Shown here in pieces: positions 1 through 18,408 of a stretch of DNA of 19,309 nt. The notes beneath the pieces are model-generated. The model was not told the DNA's origin. It was given only the letters and a program-made list of their open reading frames with translations, and searched no databases. Location: the IMG/VR virus record IMGVR_UViG_3300029725_000137, positions 1-19,309 of that record, one strand, 5' to 3'. Position 1 is the first letter of the stretch. Every line of letters begins with the position of its first letter. Origin of the DNA: a virus. Position numbers and translations under genes: made by a program.

Positions 1-2058
1 TCAGGGTAACTGGTTGATTTCCACGACAGCGGTCTGGGCATAGTGGTGGCCGACAAAAACCCACACTTGCCGGGGTTGCCCGGTCGTGTTGGGGGCAAGC
101 GTCAGGGTGATTTGGCCGCCGCCGGCTGGTATCTGCTCCGCGGATTGGCTGCACCATACGGCGGCGGGGTCATGCCCGCACATGGTATCGTTCAGCACAT
201 AGATAGCTTCGGAGAGGACGGAAGACGCCGTCAATGTCACGTCGCCGCCAGAGGCCGGCACTTCATGCGCAGAAGCCGTTACTTCCGGAACCGGTTTAGG
301 AGTCACACCCTCCATTACCGTGTCCTTCATGAGGACCCAGGAGTTGGTTATGCCCAGTGAGGGTGCATTGTCTATCCTTATCCCTCCCATACGGAGGCCC
401 GCCTGATAAGTCCCGCTGACTTCGTGTGCCTTGAATTTGGTTGTAAGGCATGCTGTGTTGCCGGCGCCCCAAAAGGAGGAAGCCATATCCATTACATATT
501 GCTTGTCCACAAACAAGGCCCAGCGATTGTAAATCTCCTGGTCATCGGGGTTGGGTGGCGTCATGGCCGCGGAGACGTAGGTAAAAGCCGGAGCCAATGC
601 CCAAACATAATGGGAATCTACCTTGAGGGGTCCGTAAAACGTCCCCCTTATCAAGGCCGACTTATTGCTTCCCAGATACCCCATAGGGTAGGTAGTGATC
701 TGATACGCCGGCACATTGTCGCCCCCTCTCGCTCCATTGACTGTATTGTTTTGCGGATACCTGTAATTTGCATTATCCCAGGCATAATCCACCCAGTGCA
801 CAGGATGTGAATAGCAGGACGCCAGCGGATCGGTAGTCGTAGCGTACCCCTGGGCAGTGCTGCCCAAGAGAACCGACACCTTGTCGGAGCCAAGTATCCG
901 CCAGACGCAAGCGGCAGCATATTCGTTATTTCTATTGTTGCCCATGTAATTGGCAAATTTCCATGATCCCGTGGATTTGCCGATAACAGAAACACCCCCT
1001 GCCGCCGTCATGGTTAATACCATATCGCACAAGTCGTTATTAAATACTCCCTTCTTTAGAGAGGCGTTAGCGGTAGCAATTGTGTAGCTTGTGTTCAACG
1101 ACTGGGCTTCCACCAAGGCGGTCACCCATGACGGAATGACGGATTCCAGAAAATAGTTGGCGCGGCTCCATTGGCCGGCAGCCGTCATGGTTATCATTCC
1201 CTCATAGGAAATGGCATTCTGCCCTGTGGCGGGCAGCGGCACACGGACTCCTTCGATTGCGGTGATCGTGGCGTCGTAGGTCTGCGGCTGCGTCCAGTTA
1301 TAAGACCCGTCCGGATTAACATCCCCGGTATCTCCTTTCTCGCCACGGGGCCCTTGGGGACCCTCCGGCCCCTCGGGTCCTTGCGGGCCGGCAGGACCCT
1401 GCGGTCCGGTTTCTCCAATGTCGCCTTTTGGTCCCTGCTCTCCGGTAGCTCCCTGAGGACCTTGAGGCCCTGCGTCACCCCTGGGACCCTGAGGGCCTTC
1501 GGGGCCGGTTTCGCCCGGTTCCCCCTGCGGGCCTGGTGGGCCTTCGGGACCGGCGTCTCCTTTGGGGATGGTAAACGACAACAGATAAGAGCCCGCTTCC
1601 GAGCCTTTCACGGCTTCCGCTGCGGCAGGAGTGCCAGGCTCGCCGGTAGTGACCCGGTCCACCGAAAGATTGAAATTCTCGGCGTACTTCTTGGCCTGCT
1701 CCGCGTACCAGGCGGCGCTTGACGCATTATCAAGCACGACTTGCACGCATCCGCTTTCTTCCGGCAGCTGCACGACGACCGCACCCGCTACCGCCTGCTG
1801 CTCGTCCGGCAAGTCCGGCGTCACCCGGCCCGAAGAAACAAAGCATCCGTAGAGAAGCGGGCTTTCCTCGTTGCCGTCATCCATGAAGACATCGTAGGAC
1901 CACATGCCCGCGGGCACCGAGGCCCACGAAATCACGCCGTTGCCCTCGTCGTCACGGGAAAAGCCGAACTCGGCAATACCCGTCTTGAGGCGAACGGCTC
2001 CGCGCAGGGTGACGCCGCCCATATCGACGGGATCTCCCTGGAAATCCACCACGCGCAC
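1..2058 (-). CDS. Collagen-like tail fibre / receptor-binding protein with a C-terminal BACON/Ig-like beta-sandwich
   Basis: 685-aa ORF with GTG at 2058..2056 and TGA at 3..1. It has a long uninterrupted G-X-Y run ([37 protein letters not shown]...GEKGDTG). The last ~90 aa (..[57 protein letters not shown]) resemble a BACON-type domain. The frame stays open upstream and has an in-frame AGG at 2118..2116, a possible alternative start. Confidence 0.8.
1324..1560 (-). repeat. Collagen-like Gly-X-Y triplet repeat region inside the fibre gene
   Basis: About 26 consecutive GXY triplets in the translated product. At the DNA level this shows as a GC-rich ggn-ccn periodicity. Confidence 0.9.
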
Positions 2059-2125
2059 GACCAGTGACTGGTTGAGTCCCGTGACGGTCCGTATATCATA
2101 TTTGCCTGCCTGTTGCCTGAAGCGG

Positions 2126-2158: not shown

Positions 2159-2171
2159 TTGGGTTGGTATG

Positions 2172-2783
2172 TCAGGAAGCGGGCGTCGTCGTCACATCCT
2201 GAATATTGGACGGCGTGGCCTGGTACTGACCCTTGTAATCCATCTCAAATTCAAACTGTGCGGACGCCACCGCGGTTGTGTGTTCCGGATCCTGCAGGAG
2301 ACGCAAGGCGCCATGCCCGATGTAGGTAAGGAATATCTCGCCAATATCGTTCTGATACCACAGTTGCAGGTAGCCTTCTATTTTATTGTCGCCGCCGTGC
2401 CCGATGGCGACGGCTTCCTTGCCGTTGGCCGGGGCTGCGCCCAGCGCAAAAGAGAGCTGGAAGTATTCCGGGGACATATCCGGCGTCGTGAAGGTCATGC
2501 GCTTGCCGGTAGTGGTGTTTTTGCGCTGAACACGGTAGCCTAGAGCTCCACCGTAGAAGCGCGTCACTTCTCCTTCCACCTGCGTAGCTACGGATTGGAA
2601 GGCTCCCAGCAAGCCAAAGCTCACCCAGGGAAATTCGGGGCCAGCCGTCGGATCGACGGGGGGCGCGGTAGGAGGCTCCGGGAACTGATAGGGTCCGGTA
2701 ACGTAGGAGGCGCCGCCTTCCTCGGTCACCTTGATGCCGTCAGGGAGAAAAATCGCCAGGACGCCCGTAATCTGCGGAGTCAC
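2172..2783 (-). CDS. Phage structural protein of unknown role; position suggests tail or baseplate
   Basis: 203-aa ORF with GTG at 2783 and TGA at 2174..2172. It has a Pro-rich segment ([19 protein letters not shown]) and is followed by a hairpin. An in-frame AGG at 2822..2820, five codons after the upstream gene's TAA, is an alternative start. Confidence 0.6.
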
Positions 2784-2837
2784 ATTGCGATTGCTGTAAG
2801 TAGGGTCGTAAGTATTAGGCCTGATGCTTGAATGGGT

Positions 2838-5996: not shown

Positions 5997-6017
5997 GATG
6001 GAGGCGGGTTGGGTGGG

Positions 6018-6941
6018 TTAAGCCGTGGCCGTCGCGTCGATGCGGACGATGGCGGACGGGTTGGTCAGCTTGGTCAGCGAGTAGACGCGGTTGGTTACCA
6101 GCGTCAAAGCGGGCGTCGGCTTGTATTCCGTGATGACTTCGCGGCGGAGCTTGCCGGACAAACCAAACGTCTTGATGGCAGAGGCGTCGAACTGCGTCGG
6201 GGAGTCTTCCTTGTACAGGACATAGACTTCGTTCTCCATGATGGTCTTGGCGTCGCCGGAAGCGTCGCGGTAGGGCATGGCTGCGATGTAAATATCCCTG
6301 ATAGGCCGAATCAGCGCATTGCGGAGCAGGTCTTCGTTGAAGAGGCCGACACTGTTGAATGACACCACCTGTCTGGCAATGGGGTTGGCTCGCAGGAGCT
6401 GCCAGGCGTTGATGCCAAAGACGATGGTGTTAGGCATGTGTCCAGTCGCCGCATTGATGGACAGGATGGCATTATCCAGATCCGTCAGCGGATTCTTCTG
6501 TTCGTTGGCCCAGTCCCCGTAACCGGCTGCGGCAGGCAACTGGCTGGTGATGAGCTTGGCACGTTCATATTCATACGAGGTCACAAACTGTGATTCGATG
6601 AGCTTGTATTCCGCCAGGGTGATAGCCTGCGCCTTTTCGCGGTTGACGCCCAGCAAGGCGTCCGGAATCGGCAAGGTTAAGCCGTACCCCTGAAGGGTGT
6701 CGGTTTCGTTCCTGCCGCGCAGGACGGTCTGGCGGGGAGGTTCGCCCGGTCCCACCTGGATCGGCTGGACCGTAAAGGCAGATTCCGTGTCCCAGACCTT
6801 GTACTGGAAATTGAGGTCGTAAACCGGGACGATCGGCGCAATGCGGCTGATAATGGAGTTCTCTTCGGTGTTTCCGGAACCCGCAGAATAAGCGGTCAGA
6901 ACATCGGTGAACTGGACGGCTGAGCAAAATGGAGTAGCCCT
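6018..6941 (-). CDS. Major capsid protein, lambda gpE-like family, with proposed AGG start
   Basis: The track ORF is 6018..6755, starting at GTG. The same frame is open back to the TAA at 6965..6963. The upstream part reads [AGG]ATPFCSAVQFTDVLTAYSAGSGNTEENSIISRIAPIVPVYDLNFQYKVWDTESAFTVQPIQ.., which looks like genuine capsid N-terminal sequence. No in-frame ATG/GTG/TTG lies in 6756-6962, and there is an in-frame AGG at 6941..6939. This start gives 307 aa versus an implausible 245 aa. The gene sits after the protease and the decoration-position gene. Confidence 0.7.
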   Translation of the reverse strand, partial: RATPFCSAVQFTDVLTAYSAGSGNTEENSIISRIAPIVPVYDLNFQYKVWDTESAFTVQPIQVGPGEPPRQTVLRGRNETDTLQGYGLTLPIPDALLGVNREKAQAITLAEYKLIESQFVTSYEYERAKLITSQLPAAAGYGDWANEQKNPLTDLDNAILSINAATGHMPNTIVFGINAWQLLRANPIARQVVSFNSVGLFNEDLLRNALIRPIRDIYIAAMPYRDASGDAKTIMENEVYVLYKEDSPTQFDASAIKTFGLSGKLRREVITEYKPTPALTLVTNRVYSLTKLTNPSAIVRIDATATA

Positions 6942-6974
6942 TGTTCTTTGTCTTTCTATTGATTAGTGTTGATG

Positions 6975-7406
6975 CTACACAGCTGCGACCTGGTAGGAGG
7001 GGACGAATCCGATTTCCACCATGCCCTGTTCCCACTGGGCGTGGATCACGCGGGCATAGACAGTTTCTCCGCTGGCGGCGGCCTTCCATGCTCCGTTGGC
7101 CGTGATGGTGAGGGGCGTTCCGGCGTTGATCGTGCCCGGCGTGTCGGAAAGAGCTGCCTTGATCAGGCCTGCATACATGCCGACGAGAGCGGCGACGCAG
7201 GTTCCCTGGTTGGGCTGCCCTTGCAGGACTACGCCGAGCAGCTGTGTCTGCGTAGGGATGGTGGACAACGGCGTCCCGATAAACTCGGGGATGTCCGGGT
7301 TGGCGGTCAGCGCCACGACGGTTCCTTCCTGTCCGCACAGGTCAACACCCTCCGGGGTGTTGAAATAGACGATGGCGCTTTTCTGGGTTACATTGAGTGA
7401 TGGCAT
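6975..7406 (-). CDS. Head decoration-position protein, DUF2190-like
   Basis: 143 aa with ATG at 7406 and TAG at 6977..6975. It lies between protease/scaffold and major capsid, the position lambda D occupies. Confidence 0.55.
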   Translation of the reverse strand: MPSLNVTQKSAIVYFNTPEGVDLCGQEGTVVALTANPDIPEFIGTPLSTIPTQTQLLGVVLQGQPNQGTCVAALVGMYAGLIKAALSDTPGTINAGTPLTITANGAWKAAASGETVYARVIHAQWEQGMVEIGFVPSYQVAAV

Positions 7407-7426
7407 TGGTTTGTATCAGGTTGGGG

Positions 7427-8542
7427 TTATCGTTCGGAGGTTACAATGTAGCCTTCTTCGGTGGCTTTCTGGAAAGCGTCGTACCGCTTCATGCCGCCCT
7501 TCATCAATTCGTCCACGCGGTTCCGGAATCCGTCGATGGATTCCTTTTTGCGGAACGGATTGGGCGGCGCCTGGGTGGCACGGCGGTTCAAGGACGTTCT
7601 TCCAACTGGATTGCGGCGGCTTTCGTCAACAACGTCATGCGGCGGCTTTGACTTCGCGGACCGATTGAGAGCCTTGACAAAGGCGCCCAGTGCGGCGGGG
7701 CTTTCCCGGAGAGAGTTTTTCAGCTCTTCCCGGCGTTCTTCCGTAAACTCCTCGCGTTCTTCCTCGTCCAGTGCGTTTTCATACGTACTGACGGCTTCGT
7801 CCACTTCGGCGTTCACGGCATTCTTCTCTCTCTTTTCCAGATCGAGAAGTTCATCCACGCGGCGGAGGATTTCCCTGGACATGTCATCGGTTCCGTCAAA
7901 TTCGACGTCCAATTTATCGAGCAGGGAATCAAACAGAGCCCGCTGGGCTCGGTCCATTTCCTTCGCCGGGTATTCTTCGGCGTTTTCTTTCATCGTTTTG
8001 TCTTGGTTGGTTTCCCCCTCTTCGGGGCTTTTGTTTTCGCCCCCGTCCTTGTCGGGGGAAGTCTGTCTATTGATGAGCGGGCGCTTGCCCTTGATGCGCG
8101 GACGGTTGGTCAACGCGAATCCCGTCAGGCGAGTGGGAGTGTAAACGCCGTCCTCCAAGGTCATGCCGTCCATATACTCCGTAGACGATTGCGTGTACTC
8201 CTTGTCGATAAGCATTTGCAGTCCGCGTGGCGTCCAGTCGATAAAACCGTACAATTCCAGGCTGCCTGACGGATCCCGGTAGGTATCCAGTTTTTTCAGC
8301 CAGCCCAGGGCCCGCGTATCGCGGCTGACGTCATGGCTGAGGTGATCGCCGTCAATCAGCATGCCGGGGCCATCGAAAGTGCGGGAATTGAATTCATCCA
8401 CCATTCTTTGAATGACCTCTTCATCAATGCGAAGGAGCGCGGGTCCTTCCCCGTAGTCAACCTCGTGATCGCCGGATTTCTCGATGTGATACCATCCGTT
8501 CTTCGGATCGCTTAAATCATTGATTTGTTTTGTACTGATCAT
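7427..8542 (-). CDS. Mu-like prophage protein I family head protease fused to an acidic scaffold-like C-terminal half
   Basis: N-terminus ..NGWYHIEKSGDHEVDYGEG..LLRIDEEVIQRMVDEFNS..GMLIDGDHLSHD.. matches the Mu gpI protease family pattern as I recall it. The C-terminal ~190 aa is highly charged and coiled-coil-like (scaffold-like). ATG at 8542 overlaps the portal 3' end by 26 nt. Confidence 0.7.
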   Translation of the reverse strand: MISTKQINDLSDPKNGWYHIEKSGDHEVDYGEGPALLRIDEEVIQRMVDEFNSRTFDGPGMLIDGDHLSHDVSRDTRALGWLKKLDTYRDPSGSLELYGFIDWTPRGLQMLIDKEYTQSSTEYMDGMTLEDGVYTPTRLTGFALTNRPRIKGKRPLINRQTSPDKDGGENKSPEEGETNQDKTMKENAEEYPAKEMDRAQRALFDSLLDKLDVEFDGTDDMSREILRRVDELLDLEKREKNAVNAEVDEAVSTYENALDEEEREEFTEERREELKNSLRESPAALGAFVKALNRSAKSKPPHDVVDESRRNPVGRTSLNRRATQAPPNPFRKKESIDGFRNRVDELMKGGMKRYDAFQKATEEGYIVTSER

Positions 8543-9881
8543 CGTAAAACCCTTTCATCAGCGCATTGTTGATAAGCTCCCTCAATTGTTCAAAAGCGTC
8601 GGGCGGTATACCGTTATCTTCAGCTTCCCGGTTGGATGCTGCCACAGGAGGAGCGGCATCCCGGGTGTCCTCGACGGACATGCCGAGCTTCTCTTCAACT
8701 TCCGTCTTTTCCAACCGCACGCCTCCATCCGCAAGAGCGGCGATTTCTTCCGCCTTCTGCAGCGGCGTCTGGACGGTATCAAAGGTGATCTGGAGTCGGG
8801 CCAGCGGTTCTGCGTCTCCCAGCACAAGAGGATTAACGGCAGTATTAAAGGCTTCCGCCACTTTGCTGCACACAGCGGACACGACGGAATTCCAGCTATC
8901 TGTATGCGCTCCCCCGGCCAGGGTGCCGGATCCCGATTCGTTCAACACAGTCAGAGTGCCGGCCATCACAAAGCGTACCTGATCCTTGTCGGCAAGATTG
9001 ATACGCGAGAGGAAATAGTTTTCATTGATGGAGGATGCCTTGAGGGGTTCCGCCGTACATCCGGGAGGCAGGACGACGGATGCACCTGACTTGAGTTCTT
9101 CGCAGGCGCGCTCAAGTGCGTCCATGACAGCGGCGCTTGCTTCTTTGGGAGCCGTGATGATGACCGGGGCGGACCCGTAGCGGTCCATGTGGTTGTCCCA
9201 GACAATCTTGGCATGGTTGCGCTCAAAGGAGGCTCGGGAGGCAGGAAACAGGATGGGATAGGGATGCTCCATCACCACAAGCGTTTCCTCTTCCACGCTT
9301 TCTCCCGTATCCACGCCAATATGGCATTGTGGGTTAAACTGCCACTCGTTCAGCTCGCCCGGGCGCACCCAATAACGCTGCGGAATAAATTCAAACCTCC
9401 GGCCCCAGGCGTCCTCGATAAATTGCAAATGGGCGTAGCCGTAAAATACCGCGGAAGCGAGTTGCCCAAACGCCGGCTGAAGGCCGTTAATGGAGTTGTA
9501 GAATTCTTCCAGGGCGTTTTTCTGTCTCTGTGCTTCGGGGCTGTCATTGGCGGCGTCAATTTTCCATCCCTGCATGGACACGCTTTCAATCATCCGCGAA
9601 TAGAGCATGCCCAGCATGCCGTCCGAATAGATTACCTCGTCCCAAATGAGCATTTGCCGCGCAAAGGCTCCCCTTCTGGCCTCATTGCGGGCATCAATGA
9701 GGGTTTGCAGGCCCGCCCCCTGGAGAGGATCCCAGTATTCAAACCATTGGGGGCGGCCAGGAAGGCGGCTCCGGTCCGTTAAGGCGCGTCGGGCAAGGTC
9801 TGTCTCAAGCTCCTTGATTCTGGTCTCTTGTTGTGCGACCAGCTTGGGAGCGTTGATGATATTTTTGACGGCGTTTAACCT
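8517..9881 (-). CDS. Portal protein, Mu gp29 / DUF935-like, with proposed AGG start
   Basis: The track ORF is 8517..9653 (ATG). The frame continues open upstream and reads [AGG]LNAVKNIINAPKLVAQQETRIKELETDLARRALTDRSRLPGRPQWFEYWDPLQGAGLQTLIDARNEARRGAFARQ-MLIWDEVIYSDG.., with no in-frame ATG/GTG/TTG. An in-frame AGG lies at 9881..9879, 23 nt downstream of the tRNA 3' end. This start gives 454 aa, a typical portal size. Confidence 0.72.
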   Translation of the reverse strand, partial: RLNAVKNIINAPKLVAQQETRIKELETDLARRALTDRSRLPGRPQWFEYWDPLQGAGLQTLIDARNEARRGAFARQMLIWDEVIYSDGMLGMLYSRMIESVSMQGWKIDAANDSPEAQRQKNALEEFYNSINGLQPAFGQLASAVFYGYAHLQFIEDAWGRRFEFIPQRYWVRPGELNEWQFNPQCHIGVDTGESVEEETLVVMEHPYPILFPASRASFERNHAKIVWDNHMDRYGSAPVIITAPKEASAAVMDALERACEELKSGASVVLPPGCTAEPLKASSINENYFLSRINLADKDQVRFVMAGTLTVLNESGSGTLAGGAHTDSWNSVVSAVCSKVAEAFNTAVNPLVLGDAEPLARLQITFDTVQTPLQKAEEIAALADGGVRLEKTEVEEKLGMSVEDTRDAAPPVAASNREAEDNGIPPDAFEQLRELINNALMKGFYDDQYKTNQ

Positions 9882-9904
9882 GCGACTGAGACGGTGAGAA
9901 ATAT

Positions 9905-9978
9905 TGGTTGCAGGGGGAGGAGTTGAACCTCCGACACGGGGACAGGAACCCCGTATGATACCGTTTCACCACCCTGCG
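9905..9978 (-). tRNA. tRNA with anticodon CCU, formally tRNA-Arg(CCT), carrying initiator-tRNA-type acceptor and anticodon stems
   Basis: 74-nt cloverleaf folded by hand. Acceptor CGCAGGG/CCCTGCA has 6 Watson-Crick pairs plus a C1-A72 mismatch. Then U8 G9, D-stem GUGA/UCAU, D-loop AACGGUA, A26. Anticodon stem is CGGGG/CCCCG and the loop is UUCCUGU, with anticodon CCU corresponding to plus-strand agg at 9944-9946. Variable loop UGUC, T-stem GGAGG/CCUCC, T-loop UUCAACU, discriminator A73, and an encoded CCA. Confidence 0.9.
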
Positions 9979-9994
9979 ATTGAATATACATCAA

Positions 9995-10023
9995 TACATA
10001 TAGATATGTTGATATATTGTCAA
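9995..10023 (-). promoter_or_regulatory. Candidate sigma70-type promoter dedicated to the tRNA
   Basis: On the minus strand, TTGACA (10023..10018) is followed by a 17-nt spacer and TATGTA (10000..9995). This lies in a 47-bp AT-rich, partly palindromic spacer between the terL stop (10026) and the tRNA 5' end (9978). Confidence 0.45.
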
Positions 10024-10025
10024 CC

Positions 10026-11399
10026 CTAATACCTGCCGATGGAACGATTTCTTTTTGGTCTTGTGACATACCAGGCTCCAAGCTCCCTGACCAAGCCGCT
10101 GTGTTTTCGTGCATGCCACGCCATGACAAGAGCGTCGGCCCGGTCGGGAGAACGAACTCCACGCTTTGCCATGTCCTCCTTGCTCTCGATTTTGACACGC
10201 CCGATCGCGTCTGTCTGGACGCGCGGTGCGACCAGCTGTTCGATTGTGTCCTCGTCGATGTCGAGAATGAGCTCTTTTTCCTCGATCGCACGGGCGAGCG
10301 CTCTCCAGGCCTGGGCGCGCAGATTGACAAAGGCCTGCGTATCGTCGGACGGAAAGCCGCCCCGGTAGGAGTGTATCGGGAAGCCCTCGGCCCGGAAGTC
10401 GTCGATGATGGGGAGCCCGAGTCCATCACCGTCGGCAAAGATACTGTCGGCGGGAATGCCAAGCTCGGCGGCTTTGCGCCGGAACCGTCCGCGGGCTCCG
10501 ACGGTGTCGGGGGCTGACCAGTGGTCGGCAATGAAGAAGCGATTGCCCTGCCCGGCCGCAAAGACGTTTTCGTCGCCCCCGGCGGCGAAGTCAAAGCCGC
10601 CGCAGGTCTCCCCGGTGTCCAAAAAGGGAGGCGGGTTGTTGAGCAGCTCCATGATGGCGCGGCGGGAAATGACGGATTGCCCGTCAAGGTCCGTGAATTC
10701 GCCGAGGATGGCCGAGCGGTAGAAGGAGGACTGTTCGCCGTATTCTTTTTTCAGGCGTTCGGCCTTGCCTGGATCGTTGATTTCGATGTGCGGGCAATCC
10801 TCGTATTTAACGCGGATTTTGTAGTAGAGGGATGAATTTTTGTGGAAGCAGTCGTAAAAGGTTCCGGAATCGGCACCCGGCGACGAGGTGATGAACGCGT
10901 TGAAGAGCGTGCAGCGGGAAACAGCGGTGAAGATGGGGTCCGGGATGGTCTTGGCTTCATCGAGGACGTAAAAGACCGGGTCAACGTCGGGCGAGATTTT
11001 CGGGTGCCATCCTTCCGCGCGTCCGGCGTTGTCGGTGGAGAATCCCACGGCAAATCCTCCTTCCGGCGTGCGGATTTCGGTTTTGTTGAATGTCCAGCCG
11101 TCAAAGAAGGGGTTATCCATATAACGGCGAAGCGCGGGAAAGAGCTGTTTTTCTACCTGCATCCACGATGATGACGTGACTGGCACCTGACCCCGAGGAA
11201 AATAGGTAAGGAAACACAGGATTGCCGGCGCAATGGATAGGCTCGTCTTTCCCGATCCGTTCGGAGCAACCATGGCCACGCTTCGGCCTCCCAGCCTCAC
11301 CTTTCCGAGAAGCAACGCCTTGATGGCCTCGATTTGCCAGGGATAAGGATCGAGTCCGAGGATGTGACGGAGGAAGAAGCTGACGGGGAGATGATTCCT
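10026..11399 (-). CDS. terL: Terminase large subunit with proposed AGG start
   Basis: Walker A is APNGSGKT, Walker B-like is VFYVLDEA, and the C-terminal half looks like the nuclease domain (..DFAAGGDENV.., ..ADGDGLG.., ..SPDRADAL..). The track ORF starts at TTG 11315. The frame is open to the TAA at 11408..11406, and the upstream part reads [AGG]NHLPVSFFLRHILGLDPYPWQIEAIKA-LLLGKV... The PYPWQ motif, typical of TerL N-termini, lies upstream of the first canonical start. In-frame AGG at 11399..11397. Confidence 0.8.
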   Translation of the reverse strand, partial: RNHLPVSFFLRHILGLDPYPWQIEAIKALLLGKVRLGGRSVAMVAPNGSGKTSLSIAPAILCFLTYFPRGQVPVTSSSWMQVEKQLFPALRRYMDNPFFDGWTFNKTEIRTPEGGFAVGFSTDNAGRAEGWHPKISPDVDPVFYVLDEAKTIPDPIFTAVSRCTLFNAFITSSPGADSGTFYDCFHKNSSLYYKIRVKYEDCPHIEINDPGKAERLKKEYGEQSSFYRSAILGEFTDLDGQSVISRRAIMELLNNPPPFLDTGETCGGFDFAAGGDENVFAAGQGNRFFIADHWSAPDTVGARGRFRRKAAELGIPADSIFADGDGLGLPIIDDFRAEGFPIHSYRGGFPSDDTQAFVNLRAQAWRALARAIEEKELILDIDEDTIEQLVAPRVQTDAIGRVKIESKEDMAKRGVRSPDRADALVMAWHARKHSGLVRELGAWYVTRPKRNRSIGRY

Positions 11400-11405
11400 G
11401 CTCGG

Positions 11406-11921
11406 TTAAGGGTGGAGTTTGCCGGCAATGGTTTCCAGCGCGGTTTTCTCGTCTTCCTGCAGCTGGGCGAGCTGCTCGGGGTCCAGCGTGATTTTCCGTT
11501 CCAGCGGCGCCCCGGGAACGCCGGCGACGTCCTGGCGGACCCGGTCTCCAAATTTTTCGGGAGCGAAACGGGCAGCGACTTTCAGCCGGGTTTCAATGGC
11601 GAGCTTCTTGGCAGCGACGGAGGCGGATCCGCAGTCGGGGTCGAGGGCAACCTGGGCAGCGGCATCTGACAAAGACTGACACTCGTCGAGCATGGCTTCC
11701 GACTGCGCTTCCCGCGCGCGCTGAATGAGTTTACAAAACTCTTCCCGTTCGTGCCTCCATCTCCAGACAGTTAAAACCTCCGGCATGTGATCGTCCGAGC
11801 AAATGGACTTCATCGTTTCCCCGTTGGCTAAGCGAGAGGCTATCTCGGCAGCTAACGCCTCCGTATAGAGGCTGGGCCGTCCTATTTTCTTGTTGGTGGT
11901 AGGTGATTGCTTCTTTTTCCT
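11406..11921 (-). CDS. terS: Terminase small subunit with proposed AGG start
   Basis: The C-terminal part ..RAREAQSEAMLDE..AAKKLAIETRLKVAARFAPEKFGDRV.. matches a widespread TerS family pattern. The track ORF starts at ATG 11813. The frame is open to the TAG at 11930..11928 and reads [AGG]KKKQSPTTNKKIGRPSLYTEALAAEIASRLANGET-MKSICSDDHMPEVLTVWRW.., the classic HTH N-terminus (GRPS.YT.E.A..I..RLA.GES) of this family. No in-frame ATG/GTG/TTG is present, and there is an in-frame AGG at 11921..11919. Confidence 0.75.
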   Translation of the reverse strand, partial: RKKKQSPTTNKKIGRPSLYTEALAAEIASRLANGETMKSICSDDHMPEVLTVWRWRHEREEFCKLIQRAREAQSEAMLDECQSLSDAAAQVALDPDCGSASVAAKKLAIETRLKVAARFAPEKFGDRVRQDVAGVPGAPLERKITLDPEQLAQLQEDEKTALETIAGKLHP

Positions 11922-11929
11922 GCGGGTCT

Positions 11930-11959
11930 ACTCTAGAGGACAAGTGGCTAACAAATCAA
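11930..11959 (-). promoter_or_regulatory. Weak candidate late-operon promoter
   Basis: On the minus strand, TTGATT (11959..11954) is followed by an 18-nt spacer and TAGAGT (11935..11930). A transcription start there would fall 1-4 nt before the terS AGG, giving a near-leaderless mRNA. The match is weak. Confidence 0.25.
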
Positions 11960-11991
11960 GCACTCTGTTTGTTCATTCCTTTCTGGGGCCA

Positions 11992-12020
11992 TTGACAAAT
12001 CTGACCCTCTCACATATACA
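11992..12020 (+). promoter_or_regulatory. Candidate sigma70-type promoter for the plus-strand accessory block
   Basis: TTGACA (11992-11997), a 17-nt spacer, then TATACA (12015-12020). The GTG of the next ORF is at 12027, so the transcript would be leaderless or nearly so. Confidence 0.45.
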
Positions 12021-12026
12021 GATTTT

Positions 12027-12545
12027 GTGAAAAAGTGTCCTATATGCGGCAAGGATGTTCCGCCGCGCTACGGATCGCGGGAAAGAGTGTACTGCTCCCG
12101 CGCATGTCTCAAGGCACACTATGACGCCGCCTGGGAAACTATCACCTGCCCCGTGTGCGGAAAGGAATTCCGCGCTAAAAAACTCTTTCGGCGGAAACAT
12201 TGCTCTTATCCTTGCGCGAATGCAGCCCAGAAGGGGCGGAAAATCACGTCAGAAGCCTTTCAGGAGGCTTGCAAGCATCGGGGAGTTCCCGGCCCCAGGA
12301 AGCACCCCAGAACAGGGAAATTTGAGACAAATTGCCATGCAAAGATATGGCTGCTGGAATCCCCGGATGGAGAGAAAGTCACGGCTCGGAATCTCAAACT
12401 CTACATGATAGACCGGTACGGCGAAGAAAAGGGGAAAAAGGTCTATAAGCTCCTGGTTTGTGCTGCACAACGCTTCCGTAAATGCGGACATGGCGGCGGC
12501 GCCGGATGGCGGGTACTTGCCGCCCCTGCCGTCCCGAAGGAATAA
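12027..12545 (+). CDS. Tandem zinc-ribbon (FCS/TRASH-like) protein with a C-terminal phage DNA-binding-like tail
   Basis: 172 aa starting at GTG. It has two copies of CPxCGK-x(11-13)-(Y/H)CSxxC: CPICGKDVPPRYGSRERVYCSRAC and CPVCGKEFRAKKLFRRKHCSYPC. The C-terminal ..CHAKIWLLESPDGEKVTARNLKLYM...GWRV resembles tails seen on phage homing-endonuclease-like ORFs. That resemblance is from memory and low confidence. Confidence 0.6.
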   Translation: MKKCPICGKDVPPRYGSRERVYCSRACLKAHYDAAWETITCPVCGKEFRAKKLFRRKHCSYPCANAAQKGRKITSEAFQEACKHRGVPGPRKHPRTGKFETNCHAKIWLLESPDGEKVTARNLKLYMIDRYGEEKGKKVYKLLVCAAQRFRKCGHGGGAGWRVLAAPAVPKE

Positions 12546-12576
12546 AAAAGGGCAGCCCCGAAGAACCGCCCTTTTT
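12544..12576 (+). terminator. Candidate bidirectional-looking intrinsic terminator
   Basis: An A-run (12544-12549) precedes stem GGGCAG (12550-12555) / CCGCCC (12566-12571), which has one mismatch and a 10-nt loop. It is followed by TTTTT (12572-12576), directly after the stop of 12027..12545. Confidence 0.45.
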
Positions 12577-12746
12577 AAGGGAATGAGCGTTTCCGCTCGT
12601 GCTGATCTTGTGATCGTTTTAATCCACAGCCCCGGAGGGCTGACGTGTTCCTAGAAAGAACAAATTACTTCTCTCATATTTTGCGCCAGACCGCAAGCAA
12701 AAACGGAATGACAACTTTTTTCACCTTTTTTCATTTTTTCTCTTGC

Positions 12747-12769
12747 GTTACTATAAATTTTATAGTAAC
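12747..12769. promoter_or_regulatory. Perfect 23-bp palindrome, a candidate operator, in the AT-rich promoter region of the acidic-protein gene
   Basis: GTTACTATAAA-T-TTTATAGTAAC has 11-bp arms, all 11 positions complementary. It contains TATAAA/TATAGT -10-like hexamers and lies 75 bp upstream of ATG 12844. Confidence 0.5.
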
Positions 12770-12843
12770 TTAATTTTGTTGACGGGAGGTAAGGGACCGA
12801 ACGAAGACATAATCCAAACAACAAAACTAGAAAGAACAAGACA

Positions 12844-13167
12844 ATGAACGATAACAAAATCATCACCACGGAAGACGGAGAAGAAATCAACCTGACCGCT
12901 CTTGAACGTGAATTCGGCAGCTACGACTTTGAAGGCAAGACCTATTATGCAGCGCGCCAGATGGAATACACCAACAGGGTTTTCCCTGGCTCCTACGCGG
13001 ACAAATACGAGGACGGCAGCTACATGGAAGAATGGTCTGCTCCTGGCTATGATGCAGAAGGGAACAAGGTTGAAATCTTCATGGCCTTTGAACAAATGAC
13101 GGGCGAAGAAATTGACGGAGAAAACCTCAACTGGACGCAGGACGCTTCCCGCGTTGAAGCTCGCTAA
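12844..13167 (+). CDS. Small, strongly acidic protein (107 aa), function unknown
   Basis: ATG start. By my count there are about 25 D/E versus 9 K/R. It has its own AT-rich upstream region and a downstream hairpin. Confidence 0.65.
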   Translation: MNDNKIITTEDGEEINLTALEREFGSYDFEGKTYYAARQMEYTNRVFPGSYADKYEDGSYMEEWSAPGYDAEGNKVEIFMAFEQMTGEEIDGENLNWTQDASRVEAR

Positions 13168-13176
13168 ATAACCCCC

Positions 13177-13204
13177 AGGGGCGGCAAAGCCGCCCCTCCT
13201 TTCT
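13177..13204 (+). terminator. Candidate terminator or attenuating hairpin
   Basis: GGGGCGGC-AAA-GCCGCCCC (13177-13195) followed by TCCTTTCTC. The U-tract is poor, and the next ATG is only 5 nt further on, so it is probably leaky. Confidence 0.4.
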
Positions 13205-13208
13205 CACT

Positions 13209-14513
13209 ATGACCGCACAAGAATTTATCGACTGGCTTCAAACTGCCAACAATCTTCCAAATCCTACCCAAGCTGTAAAAAGGGCCGCGCAGATGATGCG
13301 GGTGACGGAAGATGTTATTTGGAAATGGTTAAATACTAAAAAACCATACCCCACGCCTGAATACATGCAATTACTCATGGATTTATTGCATGAGAAATAC
13401 CGAGAAAAGAGGTTTTACCGCATTCTTTCTCACGAACAGCGTGAAGAGATGCGGTCCATGTTGGGCAAAAAACCTGATCTGGAAATCGCCGAGCTACTCG
13501 GAATAGCGCGCGTCACGGTCCAGACTGAACGCTATAAATTAGGTATCAAAAAGTATTGCAGCCCTGAAGCAATCCGCATCCAACATGATGAAGAGCTTAT
13601 TGCAGTGCTCGGAAAAATTCCTGACTCGGAGTGTGCCAAGAAGTTTGGATACTCAAATTCCAGAGTAGCCTACCTTAGAAAGAAATTAGGGATTAAGTCA
13701 TATAAGGGGCCGCGTAAACCCCGTCAGCCACGAGACCCAAATAAACCACACAAGAAAAAAGAGTATCCCGAAGAGTTAATTAACATGCTTGGAAAGACCC
13801 CGGATGATGAAATTGCTAAAAAATTCGGTTATTCCAAGGCAGGAATTGCGCTTATTAGAAAAAAGATGGGCATTCCATCATTACCTGATACTAAATTCCC
13901 CAAAATGAAACGCGAAGAAATGCTATCTATGCTTGGAAAATTTCCTGATAGCGAAATTGCTGAAAAGTTTGGAATATCGCTTAATTTTGTAGCGCGGAAC
14001 CGTAGAAAATTAAAAATTGCTCAAGCTCCATACTCCCCCATTAAGGATGCGGACAAGGATATGATTCTTAATTTATTGGGAAGAGTATCAGATTTAAAAA
14101 TTTCAAAAAAAACAGGGTACAGCCCATATGTAATTAAAAAATTTAGAGAACAGAACAAAATTAAGCCTTTCAATAAAAGCATTTTAGAAAGATTTTCACC
14201 GGACCAACGTAAAAAACTCTTATCTATGCTTGGGAAAGTTTATGATAGAGTAATAGCCGAAAAATTTAATATTGATAACGAGGTAGTAAGAAGAATTAGA
14301 CAGAAATTGAATGTTCCGGCATTACGTGAGGAAAAAAGCTTGCAAGAAACAATAGAAAGGGACGAATACATTAAATCCCTGCTGGGCACAATGACTGATA
14401 AAGAAGTCGCTAATAAAACAGGCAAATCAATACAAGTTATCGGAAAAGCAAGGAGAAAATTAAATATCCCGGCGTTTGATACAAGGGGTCGGTCTACAAA
14501 GAAACAATCTTGA
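13209..14513 (+). CDS. Multi-HTH DNA-binding protein with an N-terminal HTH plus 7 tandem GerE / sigma-70-region-4-like repeats
   Basis: 434 aa with 7 repeats of the pattern (E/D)x(M/L)(L/I)xxLGKxPDxEIAxKFGxSxxxVxxxRRKLGI(P/K). Examples are LGKKPDLEIAELLGIARVTVQTERYKLGI, LGKIPDSECAKKFGYSNSRVAYLRKKLGI, LGKTPDDEIAKKFGYSKAGIALIRKKMGI, LGKFPDSEIAEKFGISLNFVARNRRKLKI, LGRVSDLKISKKTGYSPYVIKKFREQNKI, LGKVYDRVIAEKFNIDNEVVRRIRQKLNV and LGTMTDKEVANKTGKSIQVIGKARRKLNI. The period is 48-60 aa. The DNA is visibly AT-richer than the rest of the window. Confidence 0.8.
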   Translation: MTAQEFIDWLQTANNLPNPTQAVKRAAQMMRVTEDVIWKWLNTKKPYPTPEYMQLLMDLLHEKYREKRFYRILSHEQREEMRSMLGKKPDLEIAELLGIARVTVQTERYKLGIKKYCSPEAIRIQHDEELIAVLGKIPDSECAKKFGYSNSRVAYLRKKLGIKSYKGPRKPRQPRDPNKPHKKKEYPEELINMLGKTPDDEIAKKFGYSKAGIALIRKKMGIPSLPDTKFPKMKREEMLSMLGKFPDSEIAEKFGISLNFVARNRRKLKIAQAPYSPIKDADKDMILNLLGRVSDLKISKKTGYSPYVIKKFREQNKIKPFNKSILERFSPDQRKKLLSMLGKVYDRVIAEKFNIDNEVVRRIRQKLNVPALREEKSLQETIERDEYIKSLLGTMTDKEVANKTGKSIQVIGKARRKLNIPAFDTRGRSTKKQS

Positions 14514-14537
14514 TCTTTCCAAGATAAAAAGCGCCCC

Positions 14538-14632
14538 TATACGAGATTCCAGGGGGTATACGAGATTCCAGGGGGTATACGAGATTCCAGGGGGTATACG
14601 AGATTCCAGGGGGTATACGAGATTCCAAGGCT
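14538..14632. repeat. Head-to-tail tandem array of a 19-bp unit, 4 perfect copies plus 1 degenerate copy
   Basis: The unit TATACGAGATTCCAGGGGG occurs at 14538, 14557, 14576 and 14595. A degenerate copy TATACGAGATTCCAAGGCT is at 14614. The array fills the convergent gap between the multi-HTH gene stop (14513) and the loader stop (14631-14633). Confidence 0.95.
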
Positions 14633-15353
14633 ATTTCCTGGGATGGTAGTTGATCTCGCGGTAGGACTGCCACTCGCACGGGATGGCGCCGCCTGTCATG
14701 TGCATCCGGGAAGTAATGGAGGGACCAAGACTCGGCTCGACGTCTTCCCCGATGAGATTGGAAATGACCACAGTAATTTTTCCGTCCTGGTGACGGCTGT
14801 CGATAAGACGGTCAATGGAATATTGAGAAAAATCCGATCTCTTGAGCTCGTGGAATTCGTCAATAACCAAATAGGTAGGACGCTTGAACGCCCTGGCAAT
14901 ATCATTTTCCCGCTTGGACTCCCGCAAATCAAGGCAGTAGTCATACGCTTTGACGTATTTGACGGACCTTCCGAGCCGCACCAGGCCGCGGGCCAGGGAT
15001 GTTGCCATCACAGTTTTGCCAGTGCCGCAGGGCCCATGAAGCGCAATGATTGCTCCGGACTTCCGAGCAAAGTCCGCTAAACGGTCTCTGGCGGCTTTCC
15101 ACGGGCTTTCTGCATCGTTTACCCTATCCAGAGCTAAAACGGCCATTTTGGGGAAGCCAGAGGCCAGCAAGAGGTGAAATTCTTCCTGGGCCTGTTGCAT
15201 GGCTTCCCGCGTGAGCCGTTCCTGCTCCACTTTGGCGTCAAGTTCGGGGTCGTCCGATGCGAGGGCCGAAAGCCTGTCCAGCAGGGCGTCGATAGACCCG
15301 TCTCCAAACATATCCCGCACGTTGTGCAAATTCCGTGATGTGTTAATATCCAT
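14631..15353 (-). CDS. DnaC/IstB-like AAA+ ATPase, a replicative helicase loader
   Basis: Walker A is HGPCGTGKT and Walker B is YLVIDEF. I start the gene at MDINTSRNL (ATG 15353..15351), preceded by GGAG 5 nt upstream. It overlaps the upstream TAA (15345..15343). The track's N-terminal extension overlaps the upstream gene. Confidence 0.8.
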   Translation of the reverse strand: MDINTSRNLHNVRDMFGDGSIDALLDRLSALASDDPELDAKVEQERLTREAMQQAQEEFHLLLASGFPKMAVLALDRVNDAESPWKAARDRLADFARKSGAIIALHGPCGTGKTVMATSLARGLVRLGRSVKYVKAYDYCLDLRESKRENDIARAFKRPTYLVIDEFHELKRSDFSQYSIDRLIDSRHQDGKITVVISNLIGEDVEPSLGPSITSRMHMTGGAIPCEWQSYREINYHPRK

Positions 15354-16104
15354 AAGTTCTCCTTCCTGGTGTGGTTGTTGATGGTGAGGGCGTTCCTCTT
15401 CGGTTTTCGGCATAGCGCAAGGCGTAAGCCAATGCGGCGGCTTGCCAGTTGTTGATGGGGTTCCCCTTGGCATCCACCCATCCGCAAGCCTCTTTATCAG
15501 CGTAGAAAAGCATTGATAATTCGTTGATTTGAGATTCATTGAGAAGCAGACGGCCCCTCAATGCTTCGGCTTGGAGGTAGGCTTTCACTTTGTCGGAATC
15601 CTCCGGCAAAGCTCGTTGCCGGGAATAGGCTGTGTTTTCTCCAATATTATTATTCTCTTCTCTTCTCTTCTCTGGTCGGACATTGTGTCGGACAACGGTC
15701 GGACATGGTGTCGGACTTTTGTCGGACGCCATGTCGGAAACGTTGTCGGATTGGTCTTTCAGAGATCGCCGGATTCGTTTTGCTTCCGCTTCCAAGGCGC
15801 GGGCCTTGGAGGAATTGCCGTTGTGGCGGTCAAAGTTGGGGATTACAAGGGCGCCTTCACGGCCTTGCAACCAGCCAACGGAGACAAGGCCGCGGGCAAA
15901 TCCGGGACAATAAACAACCCGGTCGATGTGTGCATATTTCGTCTTAAGGATTCCGTCTTGAGTATTGGCATCGGCCCACGCCCAAAACCGCCACAGTTTC
16001 CCCAGCACAAAATCAGGGTCATCCATGTGCAGTATTTCCGCCAGCTTCACCACTTCGGGCTTGTCGGGTGTTGTGTGTTCAACTTTTATCCAGTCTCCGG
16101 CCAT
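15343..16104 (-). CDS. Phage replisome organizer / replication initiator-like protein
   Basis: I start the gene at MAGDWIKVEHTTPDKPEVVKLAEIL..GKLWRFWAWAD (ATG 16104..16102). This N-terminal pattern is typical of phage replication-organizer proteins. It lies directly upstream of the DnaC-like loader and contains an internal iteron array. Confidence 0.65.
   Translation of the reverse strand: MAGDWIKVEHTTPDKPEVVKLAEILHMDDPDFVLGKLWRFWAWADANTQDGILKTKYAHIDRVVYCPGFARGLVSVGWLQGREGALVIPNFDRHNGNSSKARALEAEAKRIRRSLKDQSDNVSDMASDKSPTPCPTVVRHNVRPEKRREENNNIGENTAYSRQRALPEDSDKVKAYLQAEALRGRLLLNESQINELSMLFYADKEACGWVDAKGNPINNWQAAALAYALRYAENRRGTPSPSTTTPGRRTYGY
15675..15751. repeat. Seven phased GTCGGA(C) iterons inside the replisome-organizer gene; candidate ori
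   Basis: (T/G)GTCGGAC begins at 15675, 15687, 15698, 15710, 15721, 15733 and 15745, a spacing of 11-12 bp. It is immediately flanked at 15643-15674 by the AT/pyrimidine-rich tract aatattattattctcttctcttctcttctct. Confidence 0.7.
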
Positions 16105-16135
16105 AATCAAAAAAGCGTCAGTTGGGGGTTGTAGT

Positions 16136-16738
16136 TCATAACCATTTGATGGTGCAGTTTCCGCGGTAGCTTTTAATCCAATGGAACCATGCGTATGCAA
16201 TCGCCCCACCTTCGGCCTTGGAAAAATCCCCGTTTTTGGCGCAGGTCCGCCGCTCGCTGAATACCCACACGTCGGAGGGGGGGGCAACGTCGAACAGCCG
16301 ACGACGGGCCTTGCCCTCTAAAAACTGAAGGCGCAGAAGCATCCAGACATTGGCTCCATCCTTGACGCAGGCAAGCGCACGCTCGACAAATTCAAGGGCT
16401 GTGGCGTAGGAAGGATTGGTCATAATATCCACGTCTCCTATCTCGCTACCGTCGAATTCCCACAAGAAATCTTGTACGCAGGAATCAGGACATCCACGGT
16501 CAACAATGTCGGTTGCACAGACTTCATGCCCCCGCTCCCGCAGGACATTGACGATATGACCAGCCCCGCAGGCCGGTTCCCATACACGTTTCCGGAGAGG
16601 AGCACCTGCGTTGAGCAAATCACGCACCATGTCAGGGTGTGTGGCGTAGTAGTCTTCCCGCGGGCGCTCGCCGGAGGCAAGGTAGGATGCGCCCAACGTG
16701 GCACCAAGAGTTCGGTTGTTACCTGTCCAGTCTTTCAT
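16136..16738 (-). CDS. Orphan DNA methyltransferase, N6-adenine or N4-cytosine class
   Basis: I start the gene at MKDWTGNN (ATG 16738..16736), preceded by AAAGGAGGGGGA. Motif I-like is VWEPACGAGH and motif IV-like is IMTNPSY, a variant of (D/N)PP(Y/F). No adjacent restriction enzyme gene is present. Confidence 0.65.
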   Translation of the reverse strand: MKDWTGNNRTLGATLGASYLASGERPREDYYATHPDMVRDLLNAGAPLRKRVWEPACGAGHIVNVLRERGHEVCATDIVDRGCPDSCVQDFLWEFDGSEIGDVDIMTNPSYATALEFVERALACVKDGANVWMLLRLQFLEGKARRRLFDVAPPSDVWVFSERRTCAKNGDFSKAEGGAIAYAWFHWIKSYRGNCTIKWL

Positions 16739-17082
16739 TCCCCCTCCTTTCTCGGCTCCCAGTTGATAGGGATGCCCTCGTTGATGCAGGGGAAACAAAA
16801 ATCTGGTACGGGAGTAATACCCTGATAAGTGCAATTGTGGCAATCGCGCCGTATTAAAGGCACCCACGCCCTGCATGCGGCCCGTCTTTCCCTGACTAGT
16901 TTGATAAAAAAATTAATCTCGGAATGCTTCCAGCAATCTTCCCGTTCTTTTCGTGTTAGTTCGCAGTAACTCTCTCCGTAGAATTGTCTTGCATAGCTAC
17001 GAGCTGCTTCGATTTTGTTGAAAAGAAATGCTTTGGCCGCGCCAAGCTCGTAAAAAGCCTTCTGTTCAGGCGTTTTCTTCAT
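16735..17082 (-). CDS. Cys-rich small protein, 115 aa
   Basis: I start the gene at MKKTPEQKAFYELG (ATG 17082..17080), preceded by GAGGAGG 6 nt upstream. It forms an ATGA overlap with the methyltransferase start. The C-terminus has CHNC...CFPC. Confidence 0.6.
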   Translation of the reverse strand: MKKTPEQKAFYELGAAKAFLFNKIEAARSYARQFYGESYCELTRKEREDCWKHSEINFFIKLVRERRAACRAWVPLIRRDCHNCTYQGITPVPDFCFPCINEGIPINWEPRKEGE

Positions 17083-17221
17083 CTTCGGCCTCCTCTTCTG
17101 GTTCAAAATCTTCACAAGCTTTTGTAGTTTCATCCACCTCTTCCGAATACAGGATGGATGTCGCTCCCCAGCAACATCCATCCTTTTGGTCCCTATAGAT
17201 ACAGTTAATACAGGTCTTCAT
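17066..17221 (-). CDS. Small Cys-rich acidic protein, 51 aa; absent from the ORF track because it is under 60 aa
   Basis: My translation is MKTCINCIYRDQKDGCCWGATSILYSEEVDETTKACEDFEPEEEAEDEENA*. ATG 17221..17219 forms an ATGA overlap with the ASCH gene stop. The TGA at 17068..17066 overlaps the next gene's start region. Confidence 0.45.
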   Translation of the reverse strand: MKTCINCIYRDQKDGCCWGATSILYSEEVDETTKACEDFEPEEEAEDEENA

Positions 17222-17637: not shown

Positions 17638-17776
17638 TGCTGGCCTCCTTTTTGTGATTTAGAGCAGCAGAAACCGCTATACTCAATCCTTTCAATTTTC
17701 CTGCCTGATAAAGCAGATACCCAAAGCAAGCAATGTTAGCCAAAATAGATATAAGTTGTAAAATATTGTTAATCAT
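17630..17776 (-). CDS. Small hydrophobic, membrane-type protein, 48 aa; absent from the ORF track
   Basis: My translation is MINNILQLISILANIACFGYLLYQAGKLKGLSIAVSAALNHKKEASND*. AAGGAGG lies 7 nt upstream. It forms an ATGA overlap with the upstream gene stop (17773-17776), and its stop overlaps the ASCH start. Confidence 0.45.
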   Translation of the reverse strand: MINNILQLISILANIACFGYLLYQAGKLKGLSIAVSAALNHKKEASND

Positions 17777-18401: not shown

Positions 18402-18408
18402 TTTAATT

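Follow-up and report, generated by a model that had tools for sequence, protein, structure and literature searches.

Probable initiation at AGG in late genes of an Akkermansia phage by a phage-encoded initiator-type tRNA(CCU)

We analyzed a stretch of viral DNA of 19,309 nucleotides (IMGVR_UViG_3300029725_000137, positions 1 to 19,309; the whole stretch is hereafter called the window), which is the late region of a temperate phage and encodes packaging, head and tail proteins on the minus strand. The host is Akkermansia, as assigned from the source names and genome records of relatives. In six of the late genes, including that of the small terminase (TerS), the conserved N-terminus precedes any canonical start codon and an in-frame AGG stands at the expected start; a tRNA gene with the anticodon CCU lies among them. 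Judging from the sequences, this initiator-type phage tRNA likely establishes AGG as the start codon in six or more late genes. We also consider it probable that these elements form a natural, virus-encoded orthogonal initiation system, in which AGG would be reassigned as a start codon and late protein synthesis would be gated by the phage tRNA, independently of the host initiator; it would then be the first case in nature of a start codon reassigned through an initiator tRNA with a changed anticodon.

The window was compared with 44 related IMG/VR contigs, Akkermansia genomes and GenBank CP084202.1. The 44 contigs were retrieved with the portal protein (82-90% identity) and all align from its residue 1; tblastn covers portal residues 1-454 in all loci. 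CP084202.1 (Akkermansia phage DTMo-2021a, 31,946 bp) is an unannotated complete sequence with a deposit of its own, beside the chromosome of a cultured strain; the Akkermansia lysogen NBRC 114322 carries it. Its six AGG starts are those of the window, and its early genes begin with ATG.

Six late genes with AGG at the start position

The TerS gene, whose product is of the Sf6 gp1 type, occupies 11406..11921 on the minus strand and comprises 171 codons, from AGG (11921-11919) to TAA (11408-11406). Read in frame, this strand runs TAG (11930-11928), ACC, CGC, AGG (11921-11919), KKKQSPTTNKKIGRPSLYTEALAAEIASRLANGET and ATG 11813. The 36 codons from the AGG to this first ATG (11814..11921) encode the helix-turn-helix (HTH) N-terminus, and translation from the AGG includes KKKQSPTTNK...GRPSLYTEALAAEIASR. 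The original prediction had placed the HTH upstream of the first ATG and had found no in-frame ATG, GTG or TTG between 11927 and 11814; a codon scan and alignments to the family profile and structure confirm both statements. The Sf6_terminase profile PF20901 matches TerS read from AGG at 1.6e-28 (99.3 bits, against a cut-off of 27), with positions 1-105 of its 106 corresponding to TerS residues 19-130, and residues 8-141, including the DNA-binding HTH, align with residues 5-131 of the Sf6 gp1 structure 3HEF. Compared with the Sf6 gp1 small terminase (PF20901; PDB 3HEF, 4DYC), the present TerS is an ordinary family member and the start codon is the sole difference. ATG 11813 is residue 37 counted from the AGG, and a protein starting there would lose about 18 PF20901 profile positions and with them the HTH, as had been predicted. 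Had homologues lacked this segment, the prediction would have been undermined; those with ordinary starts share it (GRPS.Y...LA..I..RLA.GE). Among 21 distinct DNA variants, the 23 HTH codons have 7/5/21 variable sites at codon positions 1/2/3, and this preponderance of third positions shows that they are translated and under purifying selection.

The segment had also been described as bounded by a TAG, with AGG as the third codon after this stop. This arrangement holds in the window, where the TAG (11928..11930, minus strand) is in frame and its T is the last base of a putative -10 element, but the TAG varies away in relatives. The sequences that precede the TerS AGG in the relatives are of five or more unrelated kinds, and homology begins at the AGG itself; on this sequence evidence, the TAG boundary is incidental. 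The concern that a sequencing error masks an ATG is answered by the AGG in all 41 related assemblies that cover the site.

Five more late genes with conserved N-termini before any canonical start and an in-frame AGG at the expected start were found by a stop-to-stop scan and three-frame translation of the minus strand, on which all of them lie. The large terminase gene (TerL; 10026..11399; phrog_2, 1.4e-24) has its AGG at 11399-11397, two codons past the TerS TAA, and its first canonical start, TTG 11315, is downstream of the PYPWQ motif. The Mu-type portal gene (8517..9881; PF06074, 2.3e-32) has its AGG at 9881-9879 and its first ATG 76 codons downstream. In the major capsid protein gene (6018..6941; phrog_1005), the AGG is at 6941-6939 and the first canonical start is 62 codons downstream; the N-terminus read from the AGG is [X]ATPFCSAVQFTDVLTAYSAGSGNTEENSIISR, and residue 13 corresponds to profile position 14 of phrog_1005, so that the AGG is at most one residue from the family N-terminus. 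The putative tail tube gene (2172..2822, AGG at 2822-2820) is labelled from its gene position only and has no family match; its homology to relatives starts just upstream of the AGG, from which the N-terminus reads [X]PNTYDPTYSNR. The sixth gene encodes a collagen-repeat tail fibre (1..2118, AGG at 2118-2116; PF01391). Taken alone, 36 successive codons that lack a canonical start would not be unusual (p ~0.14 at the frequency of 5.2% for in-frame ATG, GTG and TTG in the window), while the joint chance of the six start-free stretches is ~3e-6. Coding, start-free stretches in six genes, each headed by a near-invariant AGG, are beyond chance.

The AGG is retained at 204 of 206 aligned starts in five genes, namely at 41/41 loci for TerS, 42/43 for TerL, 44/44 for portal, 43/44 for capsid and 34/34 for tail tube, and also at 13/13 of the loci that reach the fibre gene. 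Replacement by AGA or CGN was never seen at a start. The 13 internal AGG codons of the same genes, by comparison, are retained at 126 of 526 aligned positions and mostly change to synonymous Arg codons. Both exceptions at start positions occur in the most divergent relative (L037): its capsid gene has ATG exactly at the AGG position (MANLFYSAVQ versus [AGG]ANLFYSAVQ), and its TerL gene has AAG there, with an ATG two codons downstream. In all six genes, the stretch from AGG to the first canonical start shows a third-position excess of variable sites, with counts at codon positions 1/2/3 of 12/7/24 in TerS, 4/0/11 in TerL, 25/14/65 in portal, 15/14/52 in capsid, 2/4/9 in tube and 3/2/15 in fibre. 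The anatomy of these genes, the conservation of their AGG codons and the selection on their N-termini are direct observations. Eight other late genes of the window start with an ordinary ATG (8542, 7406, 5996, 5523, 4396, 3734, 3226 and 3032), which is retained in all relatives.

Existing annotations treat these genes in various ways. The NCBI annotation of an Akkermansia TerS (P0002; L045-L047, 10001-10492) begins at an ATA codon that is translated as M. Metagenome gene callers shorten TerS to 135 aa from an internal ATG (P0004 and P0006, the nearest relatives in the database; clusters of 78 and 460 members), portal to 285-397 aa and capsid to 212-221 aa. CP084202.1 contains a seventh candidate, a 730-codon open reading frame (ORF) of the tail region (28884-31076 in L206) with an AGG at 28905 ('agc AGG aac cac'); its first canonical start is a TTG 9 codons past the AGG, and its first ATG is 105 codons past it. 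The interval that separates the tube stop from the fibre AGG (2119-2163, minus strand) contains a G+C-rich hairpin (GGGGCGC-AAAA-GCGCCCC, about 2158-2141) with a T run after it; this structure is kept in relatives and resembles an intrinsic terminator or attenuator.

The phage tRNA(CCU) and its relatives

The window contains a single tRNA gene according to ARAGORN, which labels it tRNA-Arg. It lies on the minus strand at 9905..9978, between TerL and portal, and encodes its own CCA end. Rfam RF00005 matches it with 54.2 bits and marks the 1:72 pair as non-standard. The tRNA reads CGCAGGG UG GUGA AACGGUA UCAU A CGGGG UUCCUGU CCCCG UGUC GGAGG UUCAACU CCUCC CCCUGCA A CCA. The gene is 24 nt upstream of the portal AGG in the window and 16-24 nt upstream in relatives; it was found in every relative, with the anticodon CCU in all copies.

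The acceptor end of the tRNA carries C1xA72, G2:C71, C3:G70 and A73, and its anticodon stem carries G29:C41, G30:C40 and G31:C39. In E. coli tRNAfMet, the acceptor features serve formylation, exclusion from EF-Tu and resistance to peptidyl-tRNA hydrolase, and the G:C pairs at 29-31/39-41 are determinants of acceptance by the P site and by initiation factor IF3. We analyzed covariation in 18 distinct tRNA variants with 500 shuffles. Compensatory changes occur at 9 pairs versus 2.6 +/- 1.0 in the shuffles, none of which (0/500) reaches the observed value. All pairs are 100% paired except 1:72, which is CxA in 18/18 and persists in a divergent variant whose acceptor stem is changed at 4:69 and 7:66 (CGCGGGA...UCCCGCA). 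Elsewhere, C3:G70 is present in 18/18, G2:C71 in 16/18 (G:U in 2), A73 is invariant, 30:40 is G:C in 18/18, 29:41 is G:C in 16/18 (A:U in 2) and 31:39 is G:C in 16/18 (U:G in 2). Like the gene anatomy, these tRNA features and their covariation are observed directly.

Compared with bacterial tRNAfMet (E. coli metZ/metY), the phage tRNA is alike in the 1:72 mismatch, G2:C71, C3:G70, A73 and the G:C pairs at 29-31/39-41; its acceptor stem is CGCAGGG (CGCGGGA in one variant), that of E. coli tRNAfMet CGCGGGG. It differs in being phage-encoded and in having CCU instead of CAU, U11:A24 instead of A11:U24 and U32/G37/U38 instead of C32/A37/A38. Its CCU anticodon precludes the reading of AUG and makes charging by the methionyl-tRNA synthetase MetRS unlikely. 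Because it has neither the CAU anticodon nor A11:U24, it is not classed as a tRNAfMet, only as a tRNA that would work like an initiator. With elongator tRNA-Arg(CCU) it shares the anticodon, but not the Watson-Crick 1:72 pair that use by EF-Tu requires, nor A20, nor A37 beside U36; the window tRNA has G37, and a minority of variants have A37.

A conserved TTGACA hexamer (10018..10023, minus strand), 39 nt upstream of the tRNA 5' end and 3 nt past the TerL stop, is probably the tRNA's own putative promoter, without a clear -10. No perfect palindrome was found in this promoter in the window.

The base preceding the AGG is C at 11922, 11400, 9882, 2823 and 2119 and A at 6942 (capsid), as in nearly all relatives, and ATG starts show no preference at -1. 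This C could form a fourth base pair with G37 of the tRNA. No covariation was seen between tRNA position 37 and the -1 base of the mRNA, which stays C in loci with an A37 tRNA.

As a comparison sample, we used 337 distinct phage tRNAs, a by-product of a search of IMG/VR with a 15-nt D-arm pattern. Among them, the combination of C1xA72 and A73 is confined to CAU initiator-type tRNAs and the present CCU family; ordinary phage tRNA-Arg(CCU) genes (L131, L133) have G1:C72. The D-arm pattern itself was rejected as a family probe, being too unspecific: this arm is common to many phage tRNAs (Gln, Met, Lys and others). A pattern combining acceptor stem and D arm matched only this phage family (CCU) and six CAU tRNAs in IMG/VR. 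The six phage CAU tRNAs share the acceptor stem and have an identical D arm. Such phage tRNA-Met(CAU) (e.g., L099, L111, L148, L186 and L201) have a near-identical acceptor stem (CGCRGGT...ACCYGCAACCA), with C1xA72 and A73; they differ in that CAU reads ordinary AUG, in their anticodon and T arms, and in being carried by unrelated AT-rich phages. A phage initiator-type tRNA-Met(CAU) is likely the ancestral type of tRNA(CCU). In GTDB species genomes, the combined pattern gave one tRNA match, in an Akkermansia muciniphila metagenome-assembled genome (MAG), and the other five matches were coincidences in coding sequences. Scans for an E. coli-type initiator with CCU gave no tRNA among the matches listed for the pattern TCGGGNTCCTNNCCCGA and no tRNA for the pattern CGCGGGG...GGGNTCCTNNCCC. 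An AGG/CCU system outside this phage family was thus not found in these pattern scans.

Other loci contain an integrative element (L048 8480-20459, also in L049 and L050; L203-L205 8357-20429) with tyrosine integrase, primase-like and ERCC4-like genes and a second Sf6-type TerS (P0012/P0016). In three contigs, the element is directly 3' of the phage tRNA(CCU), where portal would follow. The element copy in three contigs has a second tRNA(CCU) of its own, with C1xA72, G2:U71 and a TTGACA promoter. In genomes of A. massiliensis, a related element is located 3' of the host tRNA-Tyr, and no CCU tRNA was seen within 20 kb. The two tRNAs that serve as targets (phage CCU and host Tyr) have similar T arms. 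The element could represent a satellite or another phage whose target is the initiator tRNA gene of its helper.

Proposed mechanism and alternative explanations

We propose a model in which tRNA(CCU) would be made from its own TTGACA promoter or cut out of the late transcript. From the features described above, we infer how it would be charged, formylated and used in the P site, which residue the proteins would begin with and what purpose this would serve. C35 and U36 are determinants of the arginyl-tRNA synthetase ArgRS, through which the tRNA would most likely be charged. The charged tRNA would then enter the P site of the 30S or 70S ribosome and pair perfectly with AGG, a codon that the host fMet-tRNA could not use. 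C1xA72, G2:C71, C3:G70 and A73 would provide for formylation and exclusion from EF-Tu, and the G:C pairs at 29-31/39-41 for acceptance by the P site and IF3. The principle has precedents in vitro and in engineered systems: anticodon-changed initiator tRNAs start on matching non-AUG codons if the first two positions form Watson-Crick pairs, an NGG/CCN set being among those tested (PMC10158994), and AGG is a non-cognate start for normal fMet-tRNA, repressed by IF3 (PMC6868393).

The TerS gene is preceded by a putative late promoter (11930..11959, minus strand) with the -35 TTGATT (11959-11954), an 18-nt spacer and the -10 TAGAGT (11935-11930), which ends 8 nt before the AGG. The original prediction had proposed this -10, and its case is strengthened by the recurrence of the -35/-10 geometry across otherwise unrelated upstream sequences: nearly all variants have a TTGAYY -35, a 17-18 nt spacer and a TAnnnT -10 ending 8 (in some, 6) nt before the AGG, e.g., TTGAAT-18-TATAAT-8-AGG in one relative. 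The TerS mRNA is probably leaderless or has a leader of 1-2 nt, which would place the AGG at its 5' end. In the remaining five AGG genes, the leaders lack a Shine-Dalgarno sequence and are rich in pyrimidines or A, and initiation would be internal. We rejected a reading of AGGA as a Shine-Dalgarno sequence, as no canonical start stands at the appropriate distance in any frame that joins the ORFs.

A private start codon of this kind would tie the synthesis of key virion and packaging proteins to the phage tRNA. Its purpose can be addressed only speculatively. It might be a translational gate that sets the timing or tightness of late protein synthesis, a feed-forward in which the late transcript supplies the tRNA that it contains, or a way to do without the host initiator tRNA, which defence nucleases could target; for the last of these, the idea of anticodon-loop escape in PMC10264068 offers a comparison.

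Several observations weigh against this model. On the side of the tRNA, U11:A24, the elongator type, is found in 18/18 variants instead of the initiator pair A11:U24; the anticodon loop (U32, G37, U38) differs from that of tRNAfMet; and two variant groups have just two of the three anticodon-stem G:C pairs. The D loop, AACGGUA, gives U20, and A20 is missing. MetRS needs CAU, and A20 is a major determinant of E. coli ArgRS; charging is uncertain because the phage tRNA has neither. Basic aminoacyl-tRNAs are, moreover, poor substrates of the E. coli formylase. On the side of the genes, the tRNA gene is downstream of two of its client genes, the AGG trinucleotide is not depleted on the coding strand (observed/expected 1.13), and four TerS loci have an in-frame ATG that precedes the AGG by 17-19 codons. 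As regards leaderless initiation, the model is weakened by a report that leaderless mRNA in E. coli required AUG itself and not codon-anticodon complementarity (Van Etten and Janssen 1998, as relayed in PMC9031893). The upstream ATG characterizes a subgroup (L019, L020 and P0001) in which the AGG is still present and gene callers give a TerS of 186 aa; the frame may be open by chance, or the subgroup may have partly reverted to canonical initiation.

Among the alternative explanations, the one that survives best, although we regard it as unlikely, is that the tRNA is an ordinary elongator tRNA-Arg(CCU) supplementing a rare codon and that the AGG starts are weakly read by the host fMet-tRNA as near-cognate codons. 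The ARAGORN label, the elongator-type U11:A24 and the fact that phages often carry tRNA-Arg(CCU) (e.g., L131 and L133) speak for it. The invariance of C1xA72 while other acceptor pairs covary does not, nor does the G1:C72 of those ordinary phage tRNA-Arg(CCU). Internal AGG makes up just 18 of 3,886 late-gene codons, or 8% of Arg codons, and is poorly conserved; its rarity makes codon supplementation a poor motive for the tRNA. Weak reading by the host initiator would require an AGG/CAU mismatch at the second position, which is not tolerated by IF3 (PMC10158994, PMC6868393), and six essential genes sharing a very poor start that exactly matches the sole tRNA of the genome would be an odd coincidence.

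Very unlikely is a second possibility, that the genes begin at downstream canonical codons, such as ATG 11813 in TerS, or that they belong to a decaying prophage that has lost its starts. The 135-aa TerS of the gene callers (P0004, P0006) and the portal Pfam domain, which begins after the first ATG, fit downstream starts. The N-terminal segments, however, are under purifying selection in all six genes, and the TerS HTH, the TerL PYPWQ motif and the capsid N-terminus fit their family profiles. Decay is contradicted by the lack of frameshifts or in-frame stops in these genes in more than 50 copies and by the deposition of the relative CP084202.1 as a separate complete phage sequence.

Still less probable, to a degree that makes it marginal, is an N-terminus obtained by readthrough or recoding of the TAG from GTG 11963, by an ATA start (11885) or by a TerS-TerL readthrough fusion. 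GTG 11963 and TTG 11954 do precede the TAG in frame, a relative (P0002) has an ATA start in the NCBI annotation, and TerS and TerL share one reading frame in the window, where the gap is the TAA plus two codons. Yet the upstream sequence and the TAG are not conserved, and the ATA codon is CCG in most relatives. The frame relation of TerS and TerL differs among loci, with a spacing that is not always a multiple of three (e.g., TAG + 5 nt + AGG), which argues against a fusion. All these readings leave portal, capsid, tube and fibre unexplained. Stop-codon recoding likewise found no footing, as all late ORFs of the window are open under table 11, the sole tRNA is CCU and no in-frame stop needs readthrough.

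A sequencing or assembly artefact that turns ATG into AGG, e.g., through a miscalled modified base, would take only a single T-to-G change and could be suspected from the CAGG at five of the six sites, but its probability is negligible, given that the same AGGs recur in assemblies of Akkermansia isolates and MAGs, in a polished long-read assembly and in 44 IMG/VR contigs, which come from many samples. A systematic miscall at methylated CATG was rejected, since CATG elsewhere in the window is normal, the capsid site is ACAAGG and independent assemblies agree.

Neighbouring genes, known systems and implications

Two genes of the window are divergent from the late operon. The ORF at 13209-14513 (plus strand; 434 aa) lies in a low-GC island (13000-14500; 0.38-0.45 versus 0.55-0.60 in its surroundings) and contains about eight repeated HTH modules (LGK.PD.EIAKKFG.S...), with weak matches to HTH_23, HTH_28 and Sigma70_r4; its product could regulate the late promoters or that of the tRNA. 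The ORF at 12027-12545 (plus strand) is divergent from TerS, with ~96 bp between their starts, and encodes a GTG-start, 172-aa zinc-ribbon protein with a weak HNH-endonuclease PHROG match. An HNH gene beside the terminase genes is a common packaging arrangement.

Few features of the genetic code vary as little as initiation, in which a single CAU initiator tRNA reads AUG or its U-centred near-cognates. To our knowledge, initiators with a changed anticodon have so far been laboratory constructs only. Full-text literature searches gave no description of a natural AGG/CCU initiator, and we found no prior description of a natural "private start codon", the analogues being engineered only. These comprise the amber initiator (CUA), i-tRNA(AAC) (bioRxiv 10.1101/2021.05.25.445580) and initiators reprogrammed in vitro (PMC10158994, PMC11744186), and an amber initiator tRNA has been used in engineered phage biocontainment (bioRxiv 10.1101/2024.07.29.605542). 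They follow the same principle, in that a changed anticodon directs initiation to a non-AUG start orthogonal to the host initiator. However, they are man-made, and the biocontainment design places the tRNA in the host, whereas the present system is natural, its phage holds both tRNA and clients, and its codon is the sense codon AGG.

A natural parallel is offered by gut phages with code 15 or code 4, which recode stop codons with phage-encoded suppressor tRNAs (PMC9523058, PMC10879173). Here too, a phage tRNA in a gut phage would change the meaning of a codon in a manner concentrated in late and structural genes, and late expression is probably tied, as in those phages, to the phage's own tRNA. 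Stop-codon recoding, however, acts on stops in elongation, whereas the system proposed here would act on a sense codon at initiation.

If the model is true, start-codon identity can be reassigned in evolution, and initiation joins the ways in which phages recode their late genes. It would explain the truncated or missed genes of gene callers, such as the 135-aa TerS clusters and the ATA start annotated by NCBI, and synthetic biology and phage containment would gain an orthogonal initiator/codon pair that is ready for use. The prophages concerned belong to Akkermansia muciniphila, a medically relevant gut species, and the model would raise questions on charging, formylation and IF3 proofreading in Verrucomicrobia and on the evasion of defences directed at the initiator tRNA.

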